NCBI RefSeq assembly: GCF_001677475.2
Contig: NZ_CP015229.1
Source: Escherichia coli
Lineage (GTDB): Bacteria > Pseudomonadota > Gammaproteobacteria > Enterobacterales > Enterobacteriaceae
Direction: 5' to 3' (one strand)
Length of the DNA: 64,000 nucleotides
Shown here in pieces: positions 4,689 to 48,627 of the stretch. The position numbers were made by a program, and so were the translations under genes. Position 1 is the stretch's first letter; each line of letters opens with the position of its first letter. The notes beneath the pieces were generated by a model. That model did not search any database and had not been told where the DNA came from. It saw only the letters and a list, made by a program, of their open reading frames with translations.

Positions 4689-5099
4689 TCACAAAATGGC
4701 GGTCGTTAATCGTGACGAACAGCACAAACGCCCTTTCTCATCGAAGATTTCAATCTGCCAGACCTGGTGACGCGAACCGAGATGCAACGGTTTGCATACG
4801 CCGCGCACCCGCCCTTCTCGTGCCGAGCGGACGTGGTTAGCATTGATTTCCAGACCAACTACCTTTTGCTCACCTTCGGTACATAAATAACCGGCAACGG
4901 AACCGATACTTTCGGCCAGTACCACGGATGCCCCTCCATGCAGCAACCCGAAAGGCTGCTTTGTCCGCGAGTCTACTGGCATTGTCGCTTCAAGGGTGTC
5001 ATCACCAATATGTTCAAAGCGAATATCCAGTAACCCCACCATGTTTCCTTCACCCATGGCATTCAGTGCTTCCAGGGTGATTTTTCGTTTCCATATCAT
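4689..5099 (-). CDS. menI: 1,4-dihydroxy-2-naphthoyl-CoA hydrolase (hotdog-fold thioesterase)
   Basis: 136-aa ORF; hotdog thioesterase-like; synteny (ydiI position). Confidence 0.85.
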   Translation of the reverse strand: MIWKRKITLEALNAMGEGNMVGLLDIRFEHIGDDTLEATMPVDSRTKQPFGLLHGGASVVLAESIGSVAGYLCTEGEQKVVGLEINANHVRSAREGRVRGVCKPLHLGSRHQVWQIEIFDEKGRLCCSSRLTTAIL

Positions 5100-8000
5100 T
5101 TAATAATCTCAAGTAAAGCCTGCACAGGATGGCGTACCCCCGTGCCTTCAACCCGTTTGACCTGACTACGGCAGGAATATCCGGTCGCCAGACAGCGGTT
5201 ACGCGGCAGTCGCTGCATCGCCTGATGCCAGGATAACTCATAGATCCCGAGCGAATTTTTATGGTTTTTCGCTTCATGTCCGTAAGTCCCTGCCATGCCG
5301 CAGCAACCCACGCTGACATTTTCCAGTTTCGCGCCAAAACGGGCAAATATCGCGGCCCATTGTGCTGGCGCGCCCGGCAAAGCGGTAACTTCGGTACAGT
5401 GACCAAAGAAATACCATGATTCACCGCTGACTGTAGCCACTGGCTGTGAGTCAAGTGCGCTTGCCAGCCATTCATTCGCCAGTAAGACGTTAAACTCGCC
5501 ACGTTCCTCGCCCAGCGCCAGTTTATATTCATCGCGATAACAAAGTACCAGCGCCGGATCGACGCCCACCATTGGCATCCCCAGCTTCGCCACACGGTTG
5601 AGGAAATCCGCCGTCTTTTTCGCCGTCTTCGCAAAACGATTAAGAAAGCCTTTAATATGCTGGGCTTTGCCATTTGGCGAAAATGGCAGTAACACAGGCT
5701 GGAAACCTAATTTTTCGACCAGACGGACAAAATCCGCCACCACTTGCGCATCGTAATAGCTGGTAAAGGGGTCCTGCACCACCAACACCGTGCGCGCTTT
5801 CTGCTCTGCATTGAGAGCTTCAAGCTGTTCCAGCGTCATGTTTGCCGAGCGATGCCCCACCATTTGTTGTTGTAGCGAGGGGACCGACAGCAGCGGCAAA
5901 TCAACCATGCCGATATGTTTTTCCGAGAGTTTGCGCACCAGCGGCTGGTTAATGAAGAAGTTAAAGGTTTTCGGCGCGCGTGCCATCAGCGGTGCGTAGC
6001 TCTCGACCGTAGCGACGAGGTGGTCGCGCAGCGGGCGTAAATAACGGGTGTGATAGAGCTGCAGGAAACGAGAGCGAAACTCCGGCACATCAATTTTGAT
6101 GGGGCACTGGGTCGAACAAGCTTTACAGGCCAGACAGCCCGACATCGCCTCTTTGACTTCGTGTGAGAAATCATATTCGCCTTTATTCGCATGCCAGCTA
6201 TTGCGCGTGCGGGCAATTAACGTCCGCAAGCTGACGCCGGATTCAGGCAGTTCTTGTTCCAGTTTGAGTGGGTCAACGCCGCGATCCGCCAACAAACGCA
6301 GCCATTCACGCACCAGCGTTGCGCGCCCTTTAGGTGAATGAATCCGGTTCTGGGTGATCTTCATCGACGGACACATCGGACTACGGGCATCAAAGTTGAA
6401 GCATAAACCGTTGCCGTTACACTCCATCGCACCACGCCACTGCTGGCGTACCGCAATGGGGATCTGCCGGTCGAATGTACCGCGCTTCACCGCGTCCACT
6501 TTCATCATCGTTGCATCGAGACCTTCTGGCGGGCAAATCTTCCCTGGGTTGAGTCGGTTATGCGGGTCAAATGCCGCTTTCACTTTACGCAGTTCTGCAA
6601 AAAGTTCCTCACCGAAAAACGCCGGGCTGTATTCGGCGCGAAAACCTTTGCCGTGTTCGCCCCACAACAAACCACCGTATTTCGCAGTCAGCGCCACCAC
6701 GTCATCAGAGATTTGCTTCATCAAAATCTCTTGTTGCGGATCGCACATATCCAGCGCTGGACGTACGTGCAAGACACCTGCATCGACGTGACCGAACATA
6801 CCGTAGCTTAAGCCGTGGCTGTCGAGCAGCGCGCGAAATTCAGCAATATAATCCGCCAGGTGTTCCGGCGGTACGCAGGTATCCTCAGCAAACGGAATTG
6901 GCTTAGCGGCACCTTTGGCATTGCCAAGCAGACCAACGGCTTTTTTGCGCATCGCATAGATACGTTCAACACCCGCCAGCTCGCGGCACACCTGCCAGCC
7001 GATCACTCCTGCCTGTTGGCTGGCAATCAGCTCATCCAACCGCACACAGAGTGCATTAACTCGCTCGTCAATCAGTGCCTCATCATCACCAGCAAATTCC
7101 ACAATGTTCAGCCCGAGCATCTCTTTGTCAGGCACATCGGTAATCAACTCGCTGACGGAATGCCAGACAATATCTTCCCGCGCCAGATTCAGCACTTTTG
7201 AGTCCACCGTCTCTACCGAAAGCGCCCGCGCCTCAACCATAAACGGCGCGTTACGCAGCGCGGAGTCAAATGAGTCATATTTAACGTTCACCAGACGGCG
7301 CACTTTAGGCAAGCGCGTAATATCCAGCCGCGCTTCGGTAATAAAGGCCAGCGTTCCTTCTGAACCCGTCAGAATGCGCGTCAGGTCGAACTCGGTCATC
7401 TCATCGTTAAAGACATGACGCAGATCGTAACCGGTAAGAAAGCGGTTAAGTTTGGGAAATTTGTCGATGATTAACTGCCGTTGCTGACGGCAGCGTTGAT
7501 AAACCGTTTTATAGATACGCCCGATAGCTGTATTGGTTTTGCCCAGCGTTTCCGCCAGCTCGACGGGTAAAGGTTGCGTATCGAGAATATCCCCCCCCAA
7601 CAACACCGCCCGCACGCCGAGCACGTGATCTGACGTTTTACCATAGACCAGCGATCCCTGACCGGAAGCATCGGTATTGATCATCCCGCCGAGCGTTGCC
7701 CGGTTGCTGGTCGAAAGTTCTGGTGCAAAAAAGTAGCCGAACGGTTTCAGGTACTGGTTAAGCTGATCTTTAATAACCCCCGCTTCAACGCGCACCCAGC
7801 CCTCTTCAGGGTTAATTTCGATGATGCGGTTCATATGACGGGACATATCAACAATAATCCCCTGGTTGAGCGCCTGACCGTTAGTGCCGGTGCCGCCACC
7901 GCGCGGGGTGAAGATCAACGATGAATAGCGTTCCTGCGCAGCCAGACGGGCGATTAATGCCACATCTGCGGTCGAACGCGGAAATACCACTGCGTCGGGG

Positions 8001-35344: not shown

Positions 35345-35758
35345 TCAGATTCCCTCCCAAACTATATATCCTTTGTCTCTTGCCCAACAAACAACTGTGT
35401 GGGCTGTATATGTGGATGTGAAGCCGCAATAAGAACATGACACTTCATACCGAGTATTGTAGATGTTAATGGGCTCGTTCTCCTTGTGTATGGGAGTGAC
35501 ATATTCCCAATCATTTGAATCATCATAATCATCAAGTTCAGGGTCTGTGCCGTGAACAACCGTATGTGGAATAAACAAATCTAGGCGCCCACACGAGAGA
35601 CAAGAGGTTCTGGCTCCTCTATCTTTAAGGAATTGAATAAATAATTTGGGCGAAATCTGTTGCAGAACCTGCAAATGCCCACGTTCATTATCATTAAGAG
35701 ACCTGTCTGCATATGGAAAATCATCAAATTTAAGAGGCTTCATATAAGGCATCTCCAA
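35345..35758 (-). CDS. zinc-ribbon-containing protein of unknown function
   Basis: 137-aa ORF with CLSCG...CSYCG Cys pairs; overlaps int 3' end and abuts the next ORF (operon-like); alternative start 35743. Confidence 0.5.
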   Translation of the reverse strand: MEMPYMKPLKFDDFPYADRSLNDNERGHLQVLQQISPKLFIQFLKDRGARTSCLSCGRLDLFIPHTVVHGTDPELDDYDDSNDWEYVTPIHKENEPINIYNTRYEVSCSYCGFTSTYTAHTVVCWARDKGYIVWEGI

Positions 35759-36722
35759 GGGGATTAAATCTCACCGCATCCTGCAGGTAATCCGGCGCAA
35801 GATGGGCATAAATCATCGTTGTCTGAATCTTTGCGTGCCCCAGAATTTTCTGGAGCGTCAGAATATTGCCGCCGTTCATCATGAAATGACTGGCGAAGGT
35901 GTGGCGCAGCGCATGAACAGCCTGGCCGTCAGGAACATCAGGTGCGACCGTTTTGATGACATCGCGAACCAATGGATAATCCAGCGTCGGAAACACCAGT
36001 TTCCCGCCCCGTTTTTTGATCTTTTCAAACAGGCTTTCAGAAATAGGAACGGTACGGTTTTTGCTGTTCTTCGTTTTTGAAAAAGTGATTCGACAATGAA
36101 GAACACGGCGCTGCTCCAGTGCCGCTACCTCGCCCCATCGCGCCCCGGTCGACAGAAGGATTTCGACAGCCAGCCGTTCATCGGGATTTTCAGCCAGTGC
36201 ATCCAGCAACTGAACACATTCAGACTTACTCAGATATCCCATTTCGCGCTCGTTAACCTTCATTCCTTTAAGGCCTTGAACGGGGTTATCGTTAAGAAAA
36301 TGGCCGGATGAGATGAGTGCGGTAAACATCGCGCTTAACGCCCCAATCTCTCGATTTATGGTGCTGGGCTGTATCCCCTGCTCTATCCTGGACACACGTA
36401 GCTCGGTGAGCATCGTTGTATTAAGTTTATGCACGCACGGGTCATCCATTGCCTCACTCAAGCGCAGCAATTTAAGGCGCGTGTTATGCCCTGACTTCAT
36501 TAGCTGGCCGTGGTATTTCCACCACAAGTCAATAAGCACCGACAGCGGACGGCGATCAATGGAGTTTCCTTTCCACTCATTGTTATGCTGTTGCGCCAGC
36601 ACCCACCGCTCATATAAAACTGCATCCGATTTCGTTTTAAATTTTTTGCGAATGCGTTTGCCTTTACGCCCCTCCGGGCGCATGTCAAGAAGATACCCTC
36701 CCGGAATTGATTTTATGCTCAT
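35730..36722 (-). CDS. tyrosine integrase, P2 Int-like
   Basis: ORF 35730..36872; start set at internal Met (MSIKSIPGGYLLDMRPEGRKGKRIRKKF) by resemblance to P2 Int N-terminus; C-terminal catalytic region TGARWGE...HALRHTFASHFMMNGG...LGH...IYAH. Confidence 0.9.
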   Translation of the reverse strand: MSIKSIPGGYLLDMRPEGRKGKRIRKKFKTKSDAVLYERWVLAQQHNNEWKGNSIDRRPLSVLIDLWWKYHGQLMKSGHNTRLKLLRLSEAMDDPCVHKLNTTMLTELRVSRIEQGIQPSTINREIGALSAMFTALISSGHFLNDNPVQGLKGMKVNEREMGYLSKSECVQLLDALAENPDERLAVEILLSTGARWGEVAALEQRRVLHCRITFSKTKNSKNRTVPISESLFEKIKKRGGKLVFPTLDYPLVRDVIKTVAPDVPDGQAVHALRHTFASHFMMNGGNILTLQKILGHAKIQTTMIYAHLAPDYLQDAVRFNPLGDALYEAS

Positions 36723-36771
36723 TCGTGAAACCCCAGCGTTACAAGACCACCATGCCCCCAGCGCTCCATGA

Positions 36772-37083
36772 TTAGCCGGGCTGTGTGCCAGTCTTGCGGG
36801 GTTTTTGAGAAGGCGATGTGCTTTTTGGCCCATCAGGGGAGAGAGACGGACTGATCTGCCCAGCAGCCTCATTTGTTTCGTTACTCATCAACCACGTGGT
36901 GTATTTTTTAAAGTTCGGATGCATTGTGATTTTCAGTAAAACCTCCGTCCCCACACCTCTAATACCAGTCTCATATTGCTTAACTGTACCAACCGCAATA
37001 CCTATTGAATCCGCGAACTTTGCCTGGCTAAGTCCCTCAGATTCTCGAATTGCTTTTAGCTTCTTTGATATCTCTATTGACAT
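36772..37083 (-). CDS. P2 C-type immunity repressor (HTH, no peptidase domain)
   Basis: ORF 36772..37155; start set at MSIEISKK (ATG 37081-37083, AGG RBS); HTH plus motif KYTTWLMSNE...GQISPSL resembling P2 C. Confidence 0.75.
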   Translation of the reverse strand: MSIEISKKLKAIRESEGLSQAKFADSIGIAVGTVKQYETGIRGVGTEVLLKITMHPNFKKYTTWLMSNETNEAAGQISPSLSPDGPKSTSPSQKPRKTGTQPG

Positions 37084-40378: not shown

Positions 40379-40768
40379 ATGATTGACGCTCATGACTTCA
40401 CAAGATGGGTGCGCACACAGGACACCCGTCTGGCTCCCGTTCTTCAGGGATTATTTGATCTTTACATCCGTGGTCGTGACAACAGAGCACGCACTACAAA
40501 ACCGGAGAATGCGGACACCCTTTATTTCACAGTAGACGACTGCTACCGCGTGGACTTCACACCACACGGGCTGGCGTTGCACTGCCTGACACCACACGGC
40601 GAATCACTGCTGGCGTATTACGACTCCCCGGCCTCCGTATTTGCGGCAATGCTGGCGCATCGCACTGCTGGCGGGTGTGCCTCGCTGAGTGAATACACCG
40701 CTGAATTTAACCGCCTTTCCGCCATCTTCTCGCAGGAGTGGCAGCGCGTGACGGGATACCAGCCATGA
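40379..40768 (+). CDS. phage early protein, unknown function
   Basis: 129-aa ORF; stop overlaps gpA start (ATGA). Confidence 0.5.
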   Translation: MIDAHDFTRWVRTQDTRLAPVLQGLFDLYIRGRDNRARTTKPENADTLYFTVDDCYRVDFTPHGLALHCLTPHGESLLAYYDSPASVFAAMLAHRTAGGCASLSEYTAEFNRLSAIFSQEWQRVTGYQP

Positions 40769-43605
40769 GTGAGTTTGCATGGAGCTGGAATGAACCACGG
40801 CCAGCCATTGATCCGGCCAGATTTACGGAGCGCAGGCAGGAAACTGAAACCGACCTGCAACGCGCCATCCGTTACTACCTTGAGGCAGACAAAAGGGCAC
40901 AGGAAGAACAGGAAGCGAAGGAAGAAGCCTTTTTCGCACAATCCACCGTGGGTAAAAAACTCATGGCATCCCTTGAGGAAGCCGGACAGCGTGAAAAGCT
41001 GGCACAGAGCATCATCAGTAAGCGCCGGGCAACAGAACAAGACACGGTAGCCCGTGCCTTTGCCACACTAAAGGCACTACCTGTTTATCTGCGTGAACCA
41101 CTGAGCCGCCACCTCTCTTTCCTGCGCAAAAAACAGGAAGCCGATCGCCGGAAAGGCAAAAAGAGCTGGCAGGCGGAACGCTATGCACGCGGAACCCTGC
41201 GCAAAATATTCGAACGTCTGGACCGCACCGACAGCCGCTGGCTGACACCGGGTTATCGCGCCCTTGCCGGACGCGAACGCCTGGACGATTTGCTTTACCT
41301 GCCGCAGCTCAACAAACACCAGATACAGACGCTGGCCACCATGACAGCGGCGATGTTCAGCAGCACCTTCGAAAAACTCTGCGATGGCTTTGGCGCGACT
41401 GATGGCGAGCTGACCATGGATGTAACGCTGAAGGCGTATCAGATGCTGGCCCGCATGGCGTTACACCTGCACGCCATGCCTCCGCATTATGACGTACTGA
41501 CAACAGACAAAGACCGGAGGAACGAACCAGACACAGAACTGCTGCCGGGCGCAATCCTTCGCCTGACCTGTGCGGAATGGTGGAAACGCAAACTGTGGCT
41601 GTTACGTTGCGAGTGGCGGGAAGAACAACTCCGAGCCGCCTGTCTGGTTTCCAGAAAAACATCGCCCTATCTGAGCCAGGACGCGTTAAGCGAGTTTCGC
41701 GCACAGCGCGAGAAAACACGCGATTTCCTGAAAAGTTTCATGCTGGAAAATGAAGACGGGTTCACGATTGATCTCGAGACGGTGTATTACGCGGGAGTAA
41801 GTAACCCGGTTCACCGTAAGGCAGAAATGATGGCCACCATGAAGGGACTGGAACTTCTGGCCGAAGCCCGTGGCGACAGAGCGGTGTTTCTGACCGTCAC
41901 CTGCCCGTCAAAATACCACGCAACAACGGAGAACGGTCATCCGAACCCCAAATGGAACGGGGCCACCATGCGCGACTCCAGCGATTACCTGGTTAACACG
42001 TTTTTTGCGGCGGTCCGCAAAAAACTGAACCGCGACGGCCTGCGCTGGTATGGCATCCGCACGGTGGAGCCTCACCATGACGGCACTGTGCACTGGCATA
42101 TGATGGTCTTTGCACATCCGGACGAGATTGAAACCATCGTGTCCCACGTCTGCGATATTGCCATTCAGGAGGACCGCCACGAGCTGGGCGATGACATAAC
42201 TCCGCGTTTTAAGGCGGAGTATGTCGACGGCTCAAAAGGCACACCAACCAGCTACATCGCCACCTACATCGGAAAGAACTTGGACAGCCGCGCCGTGGAT
42301 GGCATCGACCCGAAAACGGGCAAGCCACGCGTTGACCACGAAACCGGAAAATCAATGGCCGAGAGCGTGGAGCGCGCCATCGGCTGGGCGCGCCTTCACC
42401 GGGTCCGTCAGTTCCAGTTCTTTGGCATCCCCTCCCGTCAGGTGTGGCGTGAACTGCGCCGCCTTGCCAGCCAGATGGCACGCAATCCGGAAGGCCCGCA
42501 ACGGCTGAAAGATGATGCAATGGATGCGGTACTCGCTGCCGCCGATGCCGGGTGTTTTGCCACCTACATTGAAAAACAGGGTGGCGTGCTTGTTCCACGC
42601 AAGGACTACCTGATTCGCACCGCCTACGACCTCGCAGATGAGCTGAACGATTACGGCGAACAGAGCGTACAGATTTACGGGATCTGGTCACCACTCATCG
42701 GGGAATCCTCCCGTGTGTGCACGCATCCGGATAACTGGAAGTTGGTAAGACGTAAACCAGAACCGGAAGACAACGCCCACGAAAATGGTTTTGACCTTCA
42801 GGGCGGCCCTGCCGCCCCTTGGACTCGTGGCAATAACTGTCCCCGTGTACAGGAAACGGACAATAACGGGACAGAACTGCCGGAAGAACGGCCAGCACCG
42901 TGGCCGCAGCTCCCTGACGGCGTTGAAGTGAACGAATGGATGCGCTCACTGAAACAGCACGAACGCCGGGCGCTGATGCGTTCGCTTCGTGACAAACAGG
43001 CAAAAAACAGCAGTGATGAAATGCAGAGCTGGACACAGAGCCGCAAACAGCAGCGGCCTTTGCCTGATAACCACGAATTACTCGCTAAAGAATGGCGGGA
43101 GTCTGCTGAATCTCTCGGCCTGCATATCGGTGAACAACAGATGCAGCACCTGTTACGGGGCGGCAGCCTGTACGTTGACGGCAGCATCATTGCACCGCAG
43201 GGATTTGAAATTGTACGCAAACCGGATACCCGCCCGGACAGCCGAATCACGCAGCTCTGGCAGCGCCTGAGCCGTAATCATGGCGTAAGCAGCACGGAGA
43301 TCCGCCATAACCCGGTCGCCAGCTATCTGGCACAGCTGGGGGCATCAGACCCTGAAGTCGCCGCACGCCTGGCATCCACACTTCAGCAGGACCAGAACAC
43401 CATGAAAACACCCGTTACCGTGCTTTCTGACATGCTGCGCGCCATCCGCGACGCAGAGCACGCACAGAGAATCAGTGAAACCACTGAACGCGCCCGCCGC
43501 AAAGCAGACCTGCTGCGGGGTGGCCTGACCAGTGGAAACAAAAAACAGACAGAAACGGGACTCATGAATCCCGTAAATGAGCAAAAAACGCGCAGCGATA
43601 TATGA
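40765..43605 (+). CDS. rolling-circle replication initiator, P2 gpA-like, with long C-terminal extension
   Basis: ORF 40738..43605; start set at ATG 40765 (MSEFAWSW); HWHMMVF and ATYIGKN motifs typical of gpA-family nicking proteins; 946 aa. Confidence 0.8.
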   Translation: MSEFAWSWNEPRPAIDPARFTERRQETETDLQRAIRYYLEADKRAQEEQEAKEEAFFAQSTVGKKLMASLEEAGQREKLAQSIISKRRATEQDTVARAFATLKALPVYLREPLSRHLSFLRKKQEADRRKGKKSWQAERYARGTLRKIFERLDRTDSRWLTPGYRALAGRERLDDLLYLPQLNKHQIQTLATMTAAMFSSTFEKLCDGFGATDGELTMDVTLKAYQMLARMALHLHAMPPHYDVLTTDKDRRNEPDTELLPGAILRLTCAEWWKRKLWLLRCEWREEQLRAACLVSRKTSPYLSQDALSEFRAQREKTRDFLKSFMLENEDGFTIDLETVYYAGVSNPVHRKAEMMATMKGLELLAEARGDRAVFLTVTCPSKYHATTENGHPNPKWNGATMRDSSDYLVNTFFAAVRKKLNRDGLRWYGIRTVEPHHDGTVHWHMMVFAHPDEIETIVSHVCDIAIQEDRHELGDDITPRFKAEYVDGSKGTPTSYIATYIGKNLDSRAVDGIDPKTGKPRVDHETGKSMAESVERAIGWARLHRVRQFQFFGIPSRQVWRELRRLASQMARNPEGPQRLKDDAMDAVLAAADAGCFATYIEKQGGVLVPRKDYLIRTAYDLADELNDYGEQSVQIYGIWSPLIGESSRVCTHPDNWKLVRRKPEPEDNAHENGFDLQGGPAAPWTRGNNCPRVQETDNNGTELPEERPAPWPQLPDGVEVNEWMRSLKQHERRALMRSLRDKQAKNSSDEMQSWTQSRKQQRPLPDNHELLAKEWRESAESLGLHIGEQQMQHLLRGGSLYVDGSIIAPQGFEIVRKPDTRPDSRITQLWQRLSRNHGVSSTEIRHNPVASYLAQLGASDPEVAARLASTLQQDQNTMKTPVTVLSDMLRAIRDAEHAQRISETTERARRKADLLRGGLTSGNKKQTETGLMNPVNEQKTRSDI

Positions 43606-43681: not shown

Positions 43682-44641
43682 ATGAAAATTTGTATCGACG
43701 ACGGCTCCACCAACATCAAGCTGGCATGGACTGAGAACGGCGAACGCCGCAACGCCATCAGCCCGAACAGCTTCAAGTCGGAATGGTCTGCGCCGTTCGG
43801 TGGCACGCAGCCCGCGAACTACATGCTTGATGGCGTGCGCTATGGTTTTGATCCGGTCAGCGATCGCTTTGTCCAGACGACCGACACGCAATACCAGTAC
43901 AGCGATGTGAATGTCATTGCCATTCATCACGCGCTGGTCAAATCAGGCATCACGCCACAGGAGGTGGATGTGGTTGTCACCCTGCCACTGAGCGAGTATT
44001 TCGACACAAACGCACAGCCGGACATGGCCAACATCAACCGCAAAAAAGCGAACGTTATGCGCCCGGTGGAGTACCAGAACGGCGAAGCATTCACTATCCG
44101 TAACGTGCGGGTTATGCCTGAATCCATTCCGGCTGGCTTTAAGGCACTGGCTGACATGAGTCCGTTTGAATCCCTGCTGATTGTAGATTTGGGCGGAACC
44201 ACGCTGGATGTGGCAAAGGTTCAGGGGCAACTGGCAGGTATCAGCCAGGTGTTTTGCGATCCACACGTAGGCGTTTCTCTGATGGCCGATGCCGTACTGT
44301 CGGTGATGGCCACTAACGGTATGCGCACCAGTCACCACATCGCCAATACCATTATCGAACATCGCCATAATGAAGCCTGGCTGCGCCAGCACATCCACAA
44401 TGACGCGCATTACGCCAGCCTGATGGAGGTTATTCGTGAAAAGGAAGAAACACTGAAACAACGCGTGATCCGCGCGCTGGCGGGTTTTTCGGGTTACGGG
44501 CGGGTGATGGTTGTCGGTGGAGGGGCGGAGATTGTGGCACCCGCTATCCGCGAAGCCTGCGGAGTTCATGCGACTTTCATCGCGGACGGGGTGCCACAGT
44601 TTGCTCTGGTTAATGGGCTGTACGCAATGGACAAGGAGTAA
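43682..44641 (+). CDS. actin-like ATPase, ParM/StbA family
   Basis: 319-aa ORF; motifs DDGSTNIKL, SPNSFK, YSDVNVIAIHHAL, MPESIPAG, DLGGTTLD, VVGGGAEI align with plasmid R1 ParM as I recall it. Confidence 0.85.
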   Translation: MKICIDDGSTNIKLAWTENGERRNAISPNSFKSEWSAPFGGTQPANYMLDGVRYGFDPVSDRFVQTTDTQYQYSDVNVIAIHHALVKSGITPQEVDVVVTLPLSEYFDTNAQPDMANINRKKANVMRPVEYQNGEAFTIRNVRVMPESIPAGFKALADMSPFESLLIVDLGGTTLDVAKVQGQLAGISQVFCDPHVGVSLMADAVLSVMATNGMRTSHHIANTIIEHRHNEAWLRQHIHNDAHYASLMEVIREKEETLKQRVIRALAGFSGYGRVMVVGGGAEIVAPAIREACGVHATFIADGVPQFALVNGLYAMDKE

Positions 44642-44645
44642 ACCA

Positions 44646-44957
44646 ATGACGACACCAACCAGACGGATAAGTTTCTATCTGAAGCCTGCGGCCGTCAAGA
44701 ACGAAAGCGAAGCATGCGCCTGGCTGGACAGCCTTACACCAGAAGCCCGCAAAAGCGGCCAACGCGTGGCTTTTCTGGCCGGGCTGGCACTTCTGAAAAT
44801 GAATCCGGCAGAGGCTTACCGACTGGCTGCATGGGCTGACGATGAGGCGTTATCAGTGACACAAACCAGGACAGAATGCCCCGCGTCACAGCCAGTATCA
44901 ACCGCACAGATAACCAGTCAGATGGCCGGAAATATCCGGGCGTTATTTCCCGAATAA
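44646..44957 (+). CDS. ParR-like centromere-binding/repressor protein
   Basis: ATG 44646 with GGAG RBS, 103 aa; RRISFYLKP...AWLDSLTPEARKSGQRVAFLAGLAL resembles R1 ParR N-terminal RHH region; immediately downstream of parM-like gene. Confidence 0.7.
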   Translation: MTTPTRRISFYLKPAAVKNESEACAWLDSLTPEARKSGQRVAFLAGLALLKMNPAEAYRLAAWADDEALSVTQTRTECPASQPVSTAQITSQMAGNIRALFPE

Positions 44958-45020: not shown

Positions 45021-45356
45021 ATGCAACACATTGACAGAGAAAAAGCGCAGCGACTGATTGAGCGAATGGAAGCGCTGGCGAAAGAAGAAAATGTCAACAT
45101 CCAAAAAATAGCTGAATGTGGCCAGATAGTTCTTCGTCGTGAAAAAGACATCAAGCAACTGATGTCTGGCGAAATCAGCAAAACATGGACTTCAGGCAAG
45201 AAGACGATTTATTGCAGCTTCTGCAATAAATCCCAGCACGAAGTCATAAAGGTGATTGCCGGACCGTCTGTTTACATCTGCAATGAGTGCGTGGATTTGT
45301 GCAATGAAATTATCAGAAGAGAAGTGACAGACCATGAAGAAAAAACGCATGAATGA
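45021..45356 (+). CDS. ClpX-type C4 zinc-binding-domain protein (novel N-terminal helical region fused to ClpX-like ZBD)
   Basis: 111-aa ORF, GGGGGA RBS; residues [38 protein letters not shown] closely match E. coli ClpX N-domain (about 32 of 39 residues by my recollection); no AAA+ module. Confidence 0.8.
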
Positions 45357-45943
45357 CGAATTTGACGGCTTTTAATTTTATCGGGGCACACTGTCTCCCC
45401 CCGCACGAGGAAAACACGATGAAAAAATACGAATACATGCTAATGAAAGAAGCACTGCGGGCTGGTCTGGCTCCCTGTCCTGTATCCGTAGAAGCTGTTG
45501 TTGGGAACACGATTTTCCGAACGCTGCGAAATCGCGTATCCGTGAAGATGATTCACCAACCACCCAAATCTACCAGCATGATCTATCTGCCGCTGCCCGA
45601 GGCTATCAAACTTATGCGTTCGCTGAAATTTGCGATTTGGATGCAGACACAACTCAACAAAGCGGTGCAAAACACCTTCGTTAAGAAACTGATGCCGGAG
45701 CTTGCTGCCAGATGTGCAAAATGTACCAGACCCGCACTTCAATTTGATCTGTCATTGATTCAACAAGCTACGGAGGCAGAACTGTACCGCCTGTCACCTC
45801 TCCATGATGTTCACACGGAAGCCTCAGAAATGTTCCGGCTCATGTTTCAATTTAATTTTGCCGTTCGACGCACACGCGTTCAGGTCAATCGCATGATGCA
45901 GGCGCAGGAAGAGCTGACGCAACACAAAGGAGGCAACCAGTGA
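45353..45943 (+). CDS. hypothetical protein, translationally coupled to ZBD gene
   Basis: ATG 45353 overlaps upstream stop (ATGA); alternative start ATG 45416 with GAGGAA RBS; no recognisable motif. Confidence 0.55.
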
Positions 45944-46464
45944 GCAAGATTGACTATCAGGCATTACGCGAACGCTATTCACCTGCGCCAGTACCGAAAT
46001 GCCCTATTTGCGGCGAGGAAATGTCAATTCAGCGAATATCTGGAGCACAGGTTGTTTATGCCTGCTCCGGTTATGGTGATGATGGAGATTTCAAAATTGG
46101 TCGAACTCTTGCCGACGAACATTATGAAAAATCGCGCGTAACAGTGTTGGATGTCGGGGATCCTGAAGTATTGGCGCTACTTGATTGGCTGGAAACTAAA
46201 GACAACCGAATCGCTGAACTGGAAAAAATCGCCACTGACTATGCACTTAAATTCCAGAAAGCACAGGACGCATTAAAGCATGCCGCTTTGCTGCATAGCC
46301 GGACGGCGCAACAAACAAATAATTTTGCAGTATCGCTTCCGGACATAAGCGAATATTTCATTAATGACGTATTTCAGCCCTTGCGATACGAGCGGGATGT
46401 TGAAAGAGCCATCATAAAGGCTGGCGGAAAAGCATTGTGGCAGGAGAAACACGACGACAGATAA
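45940..46464 (+). CDS. hypothetical protein with N-terminal Cys-rich (zinc-ribbon-like) segment
   Basis: GTG start overlapping upstream stop (GTGA) with AGGAGG RBS; CPICGEE...YACSG; 174 aa. Confidence 0.55.
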   Translation: MSKIDYQALRERYSPAPVPKCPICGEEMSIQRISGAQVVYACSGYGDDGDFKIGRTLADEHYEKSRVTVLDVGDPEVLALLDWLETKDNRIAELEKIATDYALKFQKAQDALKHAALLHSRTAQQTNNFAVSLPDISEYFINDVFQPLRYERDVERAIIKAGGKALWQEKHDDR

Positions 46465-46516
46465 AAATAACACCTGATCTCCCTCAAACCAGGGCGATAA
46501 TCGCGCATCGCCCTGC

Positions 46517-46543
46517 TGCACAATAGTGCACAAATTTGCACAA
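46517..46543. repeat. three TGCACAA direct repeats at exact 10-bp phasing
   Basis: TGCACAA at 46517, 46527 and 46537; helical-turn periodicity suggests protein binding on one DNA face. Confidence 0.6.
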
Positions 46544-46614
46544 TTTTTTTGAACGACTTTTTGCCCTTCCGGCCCGCGTGGCGGCTGGATCCGTCAAGGA
46601 TCCGTGCGTGCACA

Positions 46615-46630
46615 AAAAAACGCGTTTTTT
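46615..46630. other. perfect palindrome AAAAAACGCGTTTTTT inside phage non-coding block
   Basis: Seen directly; preceded by GGATCCGT direct repeats at 46587 and 46598 and followed by G-rich segment. Confidence 0.6.
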
Positions 46631-46914
46631 CTGCGCGCAGGTGACGGGGGAACAGCCCGCGTTTCAGGGGGTAAATAGCGTTCCCTTAACGATGTCGCAG
46701 CGACACGACAGAATGGCCGTATCGCTCACGCTGAGCGTGAAAAATACGTGAGGGATTCTGATTTGATGGGGTGAAAGGTAAGGCCGTCAAAATCGCACTG
46801 AGGCGGCGAGAACATGCAGTCAGCGCGGTGGGATTGTGTAGAGTCTGGCCGTCGATGATAGCGATAAGTCGGAAGATGTCGTGAAATTATCTGATTGATA
46901 CGGGAGCTGGAGAG

Positions 46915-46941
46915 CCGGGGCATAAATTTTTTATGCCCCGG
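46915..46941. other. perfect 12-bp-stem hairpin CCGGGGCATAAA-ttt-TTTATGCCCCGG
   Basis: Seen directly; no flanking U tract on either strand so not a classical intrinsic terminator. Confidence 0.6.
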
Positions 46942-47041
46942 CGAAGCAGCAGACAAGCGAAGCGCGTCAGTGATGCGGCACCTTGCCGACCACACTTCAT
47001 AAGTGCAAAATACGAGCAAAGAAATCAATGGAGGCTGTTTT

Positions 47042-47566
47042 ATGGTCATTAATTACAAGCAGTTACGAGAAAAACGAGAGCAGGTAAAGGAAAGTTTTCG
47101 CCGCAATGAAGATCTGACCCCGCTTGTACACCTTGCCCAGGGAATTGTTGATGCTTATGAAATCTCTCTGGAGCTGCCATCACAGACATGGACGGATAGC
47201 GACGGTAATCGCCAGCATTACGTTTCATGCGGACTGGAAACAACTGAAGGGTTTCGCAGAATGCCTTTATCTCAGATTCCTGCCGCTACCCCCAAAGCAA
47301 GGGGCGGCAATGATGAGCGAAAACTGATTTTCAGCATTGAGACAGTGGTTGACGACACACCTGGCGAAGTCGCGTTCGTGCATACTCCTCTTTCGATCGC
47401 AATGTATAACGATGAAATACAGGTTCGCGTTAATAATAATATCGTGCCACTTAAAGAAGGTAATTCACCATACACCACCGTTTGTGAAGCCATTCAATAT
47501 TACGTTCTCTCTGAAATTGATAATCTCAAGCCTGACGGCACCCAGAAAATGGTTCAACTCTGGTAA
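47042..47566 (+). CDS. hypothetical protein (orphan gene between non-coding block and portal gene)
   Basis: ATG 47042 with GGAGG RBS (ORF track 47003..47566); followed by strong terminator. Confidence 0.55.
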   Translation: MVINYKQLREKREQVKESFRRNEDLTPLVHLAQGIVDAYEISLELPSQTWTDSDGNRQHYVSCGLETTEGFRRMPLSQIPAATPKARGGNDERKLIFSIETVVDDTPGEVAFVHTPLSIAMYNDEIQVRVNNNIVPLKEGNSPYTTVCEAIQYYVLSEIDNLKPDGTQKMVQLW

Positions 47567-47572
47567 AAAGGA

Positions 47573-47597
47573 CAGCCCCATCACGGGGCTGTTTTTT
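47573..47597. terminator. bidirectional intrinsic terminator between convergent orfZ and portal gene
   Basis: Stem CAGCCCC/GGGGCTG followed by T6 on plus strand and T-rich tract on minus strand; portal stop codon lies in the loop. Confidence 0.7.
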
Positions 47598-48627
47598 CAT
47601 CAAGAAGAGCATAAGAATTAAAACGGATCACCTCTTCGCCAAGCCAGTCATTGATATGCTTCATAGCCTCCATGACGGGCATCAGCTCGTTAATTGCGTA
47701 AACCCGCGCGGCCTTCTCCACATCACCAAACGCACTTTTTTCACCCGGCATCGCCCCCATCAGTTGCGGCGGAACGCGGTGCGCAGCCAGCACATCATCA
47801 CGGGATGCCGCCTTAACATTCATGAACTCATCCTTTGCGGTGATCTGCTGGAACGGCAAAATTTGCACCCCCTCTTTGCCCCCGTTGGGCGCATGAATGA
47901 GCACGTTTTTAAACGCACCACCACCACGCGCACCCTGTAGCGTTTCTTTCAGGGAGTCCATGCTTTCGCGGTTTACCTGCGCTGCACCGATGTAGATGAT
48001 GCACCCGGCGTGGGATCCGTTGTCGTAATACAGTTTTCTGAACATGTCCGCCGAATGAGACAGGCTGGCCGAGAGTAATGCGCCGAGATATTCCGGCATG
48101 CCGTAGATTTCCTGGTTAATGTCAGGATTCATCAGGTGGCACACTTTGCTTGGGCGAAACTGAAACGCGTCCTTGCCATCCTGCACATACCACCATGATT
48201 CAAGATCGCTTCCGCGTCGCATGTATTTCGCCAGGGCGTGCCGTAATTTAAGCGGTTCGCCGAGCATATTGCTTCGAAGCTCAAGGAATGCGTTACCGAA
48301 CACAAACCAGTCCAGCGCCAGCGCCGAGAAATCCTGCCGGGAAAGCAGCGGGTGCGGGATGTAGCAACCGAGTAATACATTGCGCTTAAAGTAAAGCGCA
48401 GACTGATGCCAGGACGTTTGCCGGGCAGCTCTTGCCAGACCGTACCAGTCCACCGGGGTTTCATACCACCGCCCGTTATCAGCACAGTACATATTGTCCA
48501 GCAGGTCATGCCCGGTCAGGCGATAAGGACCATCAAATGTGAATGCACTGAGCGATGATTCTTTCCTGAGCGCATCAGCGAGATCAATGCGTGAACTCAT
48601 GCGCACTTTTTTATTTTTTCTGCTCAT
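47581..48627 (-). CDS. portal protein, P2 gpQ-like
   Basis: 348-aa ORF, leftward, immediately downstream of terminase ATPase gene with ATGA overlap; size and position as P2 Q. Confidence 0.75.
   Translation of the reverse strand: MSRKNKKVRMSSRIDLADALRKESSLSAFTFDGPYRLTGHDLLDNMYCADNGRWYETPVDWYGLARAARQTSWHQSALYFKRNVLLGCYIPHPLLSRQDFSALALDWFVFGNAFLELRSNMLGEPLKLRHALAKYMRRGSDLESWWYVQDGKDAFQFRPSKVCHLMNPDINQEIYGMPEYLGALLSASLSHSADMFRKLYYDNGSHAGCIIYIGAAQVNRESMDSLKETLQGARGGGAFKNVLIHAPNGGKEGVQILPFQQITAKDEFMNVKAASRDDVLAAHRVPPQLMGAMPGEKSAFGDVEKAARVYAINELMPVMEAMKHINDWLGEEVIRFNSYALLDEKTAP

Follow-up and report, generated by a model that had tools for sequence, protein, structure and literature searches.

What does a small gene do between the probable packaging site and the portal gene of a P2-like prophage, where P2 itself carries none? 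The question arose for a 64,000-nucleotide stretch of Escherichia coli (contig NZ_CP015229.1, assembly GCF_001677475.2; hereafter the window), which holds a P88-like prophage (Xuanwuvirus, Peduoviridae) with P2-type late genes and, convergent to its portal gene, an open reading frame (ORF) for a 174-amino-acid protein. This ORF was found to be a genuine protein-coding gene, under strong purifying selection though dispensable, and to lie on a short cassette that is exchanged between prophages; its product is best guessed to be a binding protein that acts in conflict between phage and host or between phages. The gene and its immediate signals are as follows.

47042-47566, + strand: protein-coding gene for 174 amino acids, ATG at 47042 (WP_001407222.1), member of PHROG 5091.
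47003-47566, + strand: the frame as given in the ORF list, with a GTG start.
47030-47034, + strand: ribosome-binding site GGAGG, 7 nt upstream of the ATG.
47567-47597, both strands: predicted bidirectional intrinsic terminator, common to the ORF and the convergent portal-terminase transcript.
47581-48627, - strand: portal gene (P2 Q homologue), 348 amino acids (Pfam Phage_portal; PHROG 68 at 1.8e-152).

The start at ATG 47042 coincides with the N-terminus MVINY, which is conserved in all homologues. GGAGG stands 7 nt before it, so that the 174-residue frame, its coordinates and the strong ribosome-binding site given in the original prediction all held, and GGAG was unchanged in an alignment of six diverged cassettes. 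The stop codon is TAA, with its last nucleotide at 47566, and the terminator arm begins directly after it. Alleles were compared between the window and 35 other loci. Among these 36 ORF copies were 25 different nucleotide alleles, encoding 14 different proteins, and none had an internal stop. With the window allele as reference, the ratio of non-synonymous to synonymous substitution rates (dN/dS) was 0.06-0.29 over all pairs with any amino-acid change and 0.07-0.14, mostly ~0.08, in the more diverged pairs (14-20 synonymous versus 4-10 non-synonymous changes). Beyond the E. coli alleles, the frame was kept in full-length homologues from Salmonella (61-63% identity) and Trabulsiella (46%). Near-identical cluster members were present in Yersinia enterocolitica, and the identical protein was found on at least 1000 contigs, always under the name "hypothetical". 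Base composition of the ORF (G+C 45.5%; 43% at third codon positions) differed from that of the portal gene (53% and 60%). The gene is dispensable, because 70% of sister prophages are without it.

The limits of the exchanged DNA were defined by alignment with P88 and phage 500465-2, and the joints are accurate to ~10 nt.

46980-47625, + strand: exchangeable cassette of ~646 bp, comprising a promoter-like element, the ORF, the terminator and a variant portal 3' end.
47581-47625, - strand: cassette-linked variant portal 3' end, encoding ...RFNSYALLDEKTAP before the stop.
46967-46979, - strand: relic of a P88-type portal stop (TCA 46967-46969) and last codons, recognised in the P88 alignment.

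Homology to both phages runs to ~46979 and resumes from ~47626; where the window has the cassette, they have ~31 nt. The P88 portal stop is the TCA of GCGCGTCAGG, and the window retains this TCA together with ~10 nt of the old portal end (window gcgcgTCAgtgatgcggc, P88 GCGCGTCAGGATGTGGGC). Because this relic persists and homology resumes beyond the cassette, the cassette must have replaced ~31 nt of an ORF-less ancestor. Portal proteins end in ...FNSYALLDEKTAP in the window, in ...RFNPYALLDTQPTS or ...FNPYALLDTQPTS in P88, and in ...RFNTYALLEEK in the Salmonella phage that bears the ORF. The window tail is closer to the latter type than to P88, which suggests that the gene came already joined to the portal 3' end of another P2-like lineage.

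Distribution was followed module by module with BLAST over 41 loci, and the cassette was present or absent between phages with ~98% identical portal genes; the variation among close relatives that the original prediction had proposed to look for was thus evident. The ORF occurs in 4 of 16 P88-like phage records, the other 12 having the flanks only. Isolated carriers include the phages vB_EcoM-569R5 and PhiR44_2. Among 5426 complete E. coli genomes, 396 (~7%) carry the cassette, including the ST131 strain JJ1886 and O111:H8, and each of the 400 E. coli cassette sites is in the chromosome, next to a portal gene. The upstream non-coding block is more widespread (1307 sites in 1141 E. coli genomes), with the cassette at ~30% of its sites. 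The cargo on the left side of the block and the cassette vary independently of each other: the window has a ClpX-zinc-finger gene, a gene for 196 amino acids and an Ead/Ea22 gene, EcPF40 has DUF4760, and JJ1886 has a hypothetical protein and DUF4760. Patchy presence at one site, a predicted terminator of its own and a differing base composition were all found, and as judged from sequence the cassette appears to be a classical, self-contained phage moron that recombined into the right-hand side of the gpA-gpQ hotspot. As a separate observation, the window prophage is a mosaic absent from the collection of complete E. coli genomes, because its cassette (46985-47630) is 100% identical to that of E. 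coli EcPF40 and the adjacent non-coding block (46520-46984) is at most 96.8% identical to any genome in the collection.

Whether the gene lies at the left end of the packaged genome depends on where cos is, and the upstream block was searched accordingly.

46517-46661, no strand: 145-bp core within the non-coding block and likely cos/packaging region, delimited by cross-genus conservation.
46914-46942, no strand: perfect 13-bp inverted repeat GCCGGGGCATAAA / TTTATGCCCCGGC, in the phage backbone outside the cassette.

Cross-genus conservation within the block is confined to the core (Salmonella L004, 81%; Trabulsiella L006, 73%; Enterobacter phage phiT5282H, 75%). It contains three TGCACAA repeats in 10-nt phase (at 46517, 46527 and 46537), similar to the TGCAT repeats to the left of P2 cos, and two copies of GGATCCGT 11 nt apart (46587-46605). 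At 46632-46650, TGCGCGCAGGTGACGGGGG resembles the TGCGCGC-TGACGG that directly follows the P2 cohesive end and the TGCGCGC of 186. The linear phage record LR595891 begins within the core, at the equivalent of window position 46562. These features make it likely that cos lies within 46517-46661; the packaged genome would then have the ORF 400-480 bp in from its left end. Description of the gene as a left-end moron had been made conditional on cos lying in this block, and it draws indirect support from the core, its P2/186-like flank and the start of LR595891. The cos sequence itself is not P2-like: the P2 cohesive end, sought with up to 3 mismatches, had no match in the block, and a BLAST comparison of the block with the P2 cos region gave no similarity. 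The core also contains an A7-CGCG-T6 palindrome. No definition of cos was found in the literature on P88 and Citrobacter phiSM, and the cohesive-end sequence of P88-like phages seems so far to be undefined. The inverted repeat at 46914-46942 folds into a strong hairpin (-31.6 kcal/mol, z -6.7) with a T-run on neither side, and the same hairpin is present in ORF-less P88, ~24 nt beyond its portal stop. One E. coli genome matched only a 65-nt stretch around this hairpin (window 46906-46970), at an unannotated place. An Rfam search of 46300-47800 returned no RNA family.

At the other end of the ORF, the predicted terminator has arms at 47567-47579 and 47585-47597 and a 5-nt loop at 47580-47584. 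Its folding energies are -21.5 kcal/mol (z -5.06) for the + strand and -18.2 kcal/mol (z -4.45) for the - strand; none of 200 shuffles folded as well on either strand, and a T-run follows the hairpin on both (+ TTTTTT, - CCTTTTT). The portal stop codon (TCA 47581-47583, as + strand letters) lies within the loop. Both elements of the original description, a textbook bidirectional terminator and a portal stop in its loop, were thus recovered, the former as a prediction. In the Salmonella cassette, too, a hairpin separates ORF and portal gene, with the portal stop directly adjoining, and for this reason the shared terminator appears to be a conserved feature of the ORF/portal arrangement. It is a speculation that a ribosome stopping at the portal stop in the loop could hinder the hairpin and so permit antisense late read-through of the ORF.

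Upstream of the ORF, one promoter candidate was considered.

46983-47011, + strand: sigma-70-like promoter candidate (TTGCCG 46983-46988, 17-nt spacer, CAAAAT 47006-47011).

In Salmonella-type cassettes TTGTCT-17-CAAAAT is kept at a similar distance to the ATG, with diverged spacers, and the DNA upstream of the ORF cannot otherwise be aligned with the window. The conserved hexamers may be the phylogenetic footprint of a weak, cassette-borne promoter. An Ogr-dependent late promoter (TGT-N12-ACA) for the ORF was rejected, as no such motif is visible in 46940-47041.

The product is predicted to be an acidic, soluble protein of 19.8 kDa (isoelectric point 5.0) with no hydrophobic or membrane segment. 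Scans with Pfam, NCBIfam and PADLOC (PADLOC-DB 2.0.0) gave no match for it and nothing meaningful for 57 relatives, among which PADLOC returned only two single-member matches (E 0.005 and 0.009). The protein matched PHROG 5091 over its full length (E 6.8e-67), its residues 1-168 aligning to positions 1-164 of the 164-position profile, and 57 of the 57 aligned relatives matched the family too. An exhaustive profile search yielded 89 cluster representatives at 50% identity, mostly of 155-175 amino acids. Conserved motifs of the family are Y..SL.LP...W.D..G....YV and F.I.TV.DD.P. The term "orphan gene" was accordingly too strong for a member of a family with 89 representatives that has already been tabulated; what stands is that the protein has no Pfam or P2 core homology. 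On the latter point, tblastn against 50,697 phage records returned four P88-like phages only, and not P2. Neither outcome that the original prediction had named as refuting it, a frame lost in relatives or homology to a P2-family core gene, was thus observed. The structure was predicted with a local distance difference score (pLDDT) of 82-83, as two N-terminal helices, an antiparallel sheet and a C-terminal helix. Foldseek found no match for this model in PDB or BFVD, a profile search of PDB sequences gave chance matches only (E ~0.4), and no catalytic motif was recognisable in the protein. Candidates considered for structural kinship included T3SS-chaperone-like and PI31 FP-like alpha/beta protein-binding folds and the packaged anti-restriction protein P1 DarA. 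The homology and structure search that had been suggested therefore produced a family, PHROG 5091, and no convincing structural relative.

Relatives occupy varied places. The Salmonella homologue has the same position, between the core and the convergent portal gene. In Trabulsiella the homologue lies across the core, on its gpA side and immediately behind gpA, and a HicA-like gene, HicB and Phd/Fic come next; in another P2-like prophage a family member follows ogr and precedes HicA/HicB. The order member-HicA-HicB thus occurs at two different positions in two P2-like prophages (L006, 6001-7369; L010, 6001-7359), between which HicA is 62% and HicB 66% identical and the PHROG 5091 member 28%, so the member diverges faster. 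Members in lambdoid phages are flanked by the Q antiterminator gene and the lysis genes, or by the lysis genes and terminase. In Pam3/E217-like myophages the member lies inside the baseplate module or a short way upstream, near antirepressors, helix-turn-helix proteins and an Mrr-like nuclease, and in one case (L058) it shares sequence with the start of a Dit-like baseplate gene, the two genes overlapping. A scan of genome contigs returned the Trabulsiella locus only, and tblastn queries with two distant members turned up hardly any isolated phages, CharmingMan being the only one. Because members occupy varied positions in different temperate phages, PHROG 5091 is, on this comparison, a mobile accessory gene family of temperate phages.

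The prophage context of the window gene was as follows.

35733-36872: integrase.
40738-43605: replication protein gpA.
43682-44957: ParM/ParR (StbA / Plasmid_stab_B) partition pair, inside the integrated P2-like prophage.

The ORF lies between gpA (40738-43605) and the portal gene (47581-48627), adjoining the likely cos, which is the gpA-gpQ hotspot position. With a mechanical GTG start gpA has 955 amino acids, or ~940 by the annotation of relatives, versus 761 in P2; its Phage_GPA domain covers residues 194-518 only, and the long C-terminal extension is unassigned. To the left of the core, 45021-46464 holds a three-gene cargo unit with overlapping stop and start codons. Its genes encode a 111-amino-acid protein consisting of a ClpX-type C4 zinc finger alone (PF06689, 1.4e-17), a 196-amino-acid protein with no family match in any library, and a 174-amino-acid Ead/Ea22-like protein with a zinc ribbon. 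The free-standing ClpX zinc-finger domain could be a decoy or adaptor for host ClpX.

The gpA-gpQ interval has been published as a cos-proximal hotspot of P2-like prophages, and a partition pair has been noted in roughly one in four P2-like phages (Rousset et al., 2022, PMC9122126); a 2026 preprint extends the hotspot description. Table S5 of PMC9122126 lists the window allele (WP_001407222) and, at least 167 times, the ST131 allele (WP_000236495), both as "hypothetical" and in StbA/Plasmid_stab_B arrangements. In the accessible text and supplements beyond that table, no mention of the arrangement and no test of the 174-amino-acid gene were found, the text mentioning the partition system only. 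Literature searches by accession, PHROG number and locus tag found no report on the protein.

Taken together, the account held to be somewhat better than an even bet combines a cassette moron with a binding protein that serves in phage-host or phage-phage conflict. The cassette recombined into a P88-like prophage, replacing ~31 nt of the portal 3' end and bringing the ORF, the bidirectional terminator and a new portal C-terminus. Transcription of the ORF would start at a weak sigma-70-type promoter of its own (46983-47011) and would not depend on the Ogr-activated late operon, and the shared terminator may insulate it from the convergent P-Q transcript. The product, soluble and acidic, would most likely act by binding another protein. 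A non-enzymatic binding protein is the leading guess, and is preferred to an enzyme because Pfam, NCBIfam and PADLOC gave no match, the structural model is confident and divergence is fast (28% versus 62-66% for HicA/HicB). As to what it binds for, counter-defence or inhibition of a host factor is a guess offered with distinctly less than even confidence, and it is put ahead of exclusion of other phages, again as a guess, because the protein is small, soluble, acidic and fast-evolving and has no effector domain.

Several observations weigh against this account. Members stand in line with late or structural genes in several phages, which fits a virion-related role. One member (P0026; L064-L066, gene 5001-5525) is in non-phage chromosomal surroundings on 22 contigs, with choline-sulfatase/OpuAC genes on one side and an epimerase gene on the other. 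The promoter candidate agrees with consensus at 8 of 12 positions, the threshold of the strict scan being 9, and that scan reported no promoter upstream of the ORF. Finally, most validated hotspot cargo is defence rather than counter-defence (PMC9122126).

The alternative that survives best is exclusion or defence expressed from the prophage, in which the protein would be made in the lysogen and poison a protein of a superinfecting phage. P2 Tin, encoded in the same hotspot, blocks superinfecting phages in this way, by poisoning one of their proteins. The position within the gpA-gpQ hotspot speaks for it, over one third of hotspot systems tested being anti-phage as reported there (Rousset et al., 2022, PMC9122126), as do the promoter-like element, a terminator that insulates from the late genes, and the HicAB, Phd/Fic and Mrr-like nuclease neighbours in other phages. 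It is held to be doubtful, since none of the 57 members gave a significant PADLOC model match, the protein is single, small and soluble without an effector-type domain or membrane segment, and several members are in line with late genes. Some other role in lysogenic conversion is a guess regarded as equally doubtful.

Less probable again is a non-essential accessory of the virion or its assembly, either a helper of chaperone type or a protein that is packaged and then injected like P1 DarA. The gene adjoins portal and terminase here, and relatives adjoin terminase or baseplate genes elsewhere, once overlapping the Dit-like gene. This reading has to accommodate the absence of the gene from 70% of sister prophages with a ~98% identical portal gene, its orientation convergent to the late operon with no Ogr-type late-promoter motif, a position that differs in every phage type, and structural scores that were not significant.

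HicAB pairs are self-sufficient and are frequent accessory genes of prophages. The proposal that the protein is a third component or modulator of HicAB toxin-antitoxin systems, with the E. coli copy a solitary derivative, builds on the member-HicA-HicB order at two different sites in two P2-like prophages and on a further locus (L009) in which HicB-like and HicA genes lie four genes upstream of the member. It is judged very unlikely: HicAB is absent from the neighbourhood in the window, in Salmonella and in ~10 other contexts, gaps of 183-245 nt between the genes speak against a single operon, and such pairs are complete alone. Least credible of all is a chance or decaying frame with no function, for which a 1-nt deletion in one IMG/VR copy (L051) and the lack of an assignable function or domain might be cited, against dN/dS of ~0.08 in the more diverged allele pairs, 25 of 25 alleles intact, a retained start codon and ribosome-binding site, and homologues that span genera.

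For the family as a whole, it is tentatively proposed, at a level well short of even, that PHROG 5091 is an undescribed counter-defence (or defence) family whose fold lacks a close solved relative, carried as a single-gene moron across P2-like, lambdoid and Pam3/E217-like phages and linked to HicAB in some lineages. The 174-amino-acid gene is common in clinically important E. coli (ST131 JJ1886, O111:H8), strongly selected, located where defence cargo is carried, and unannotated. If it is a defence or counter-defence factor, it adds a small single-gene family and could affect host range in phage therapy; if it is not defence-related, it is one more accessory gene.

Comparison with characterised systems places the gene as follows. 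Membership of PHROG 5091 is itself uninformative on function, the family being unannotated. P2 has no gene between cos and Q, as had been stated at the outset: its left end has only cosL (1-19) and the terminator tQ (160-181) before Q (187-1221). P2 old/tin resemble the window gene as rapidly exchanged, cos-adjacent cargo of the gpA-Q interval; they differ in lying on the gpA side of cos and being transcribed leftward, whereas the window gene is on the Q side. Lambdoid phages carry accessory genes such as stx and bor in the Q-lysis and lysis-terminase positions. Distant PHROG 5091 members are found at exactly these positions, with patchy presence and accessory neighbours, but are related to neither Stx nor Bor in sequence or fold. 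The closest parallel in layout is ctx of the Pseudomonas phage phiCTX, also of the P2 family, where cosL is followed by an accessory gene on the + strand with its own promoter, by terminator(s) and by convergent Q and P. Its product is unrelated, a 286-amino-acid pore-forming toxin of known role, and its terminators stand apart from Q, whereas in the window the terminator loop contains the stop codon of Q. By this analogy the arrangement of cos, moron, shared terminator and portal gene would not be new, phiCTX already exemplifying it. The hotspot, the layout and the protein as a tabulated entry were thus known before.

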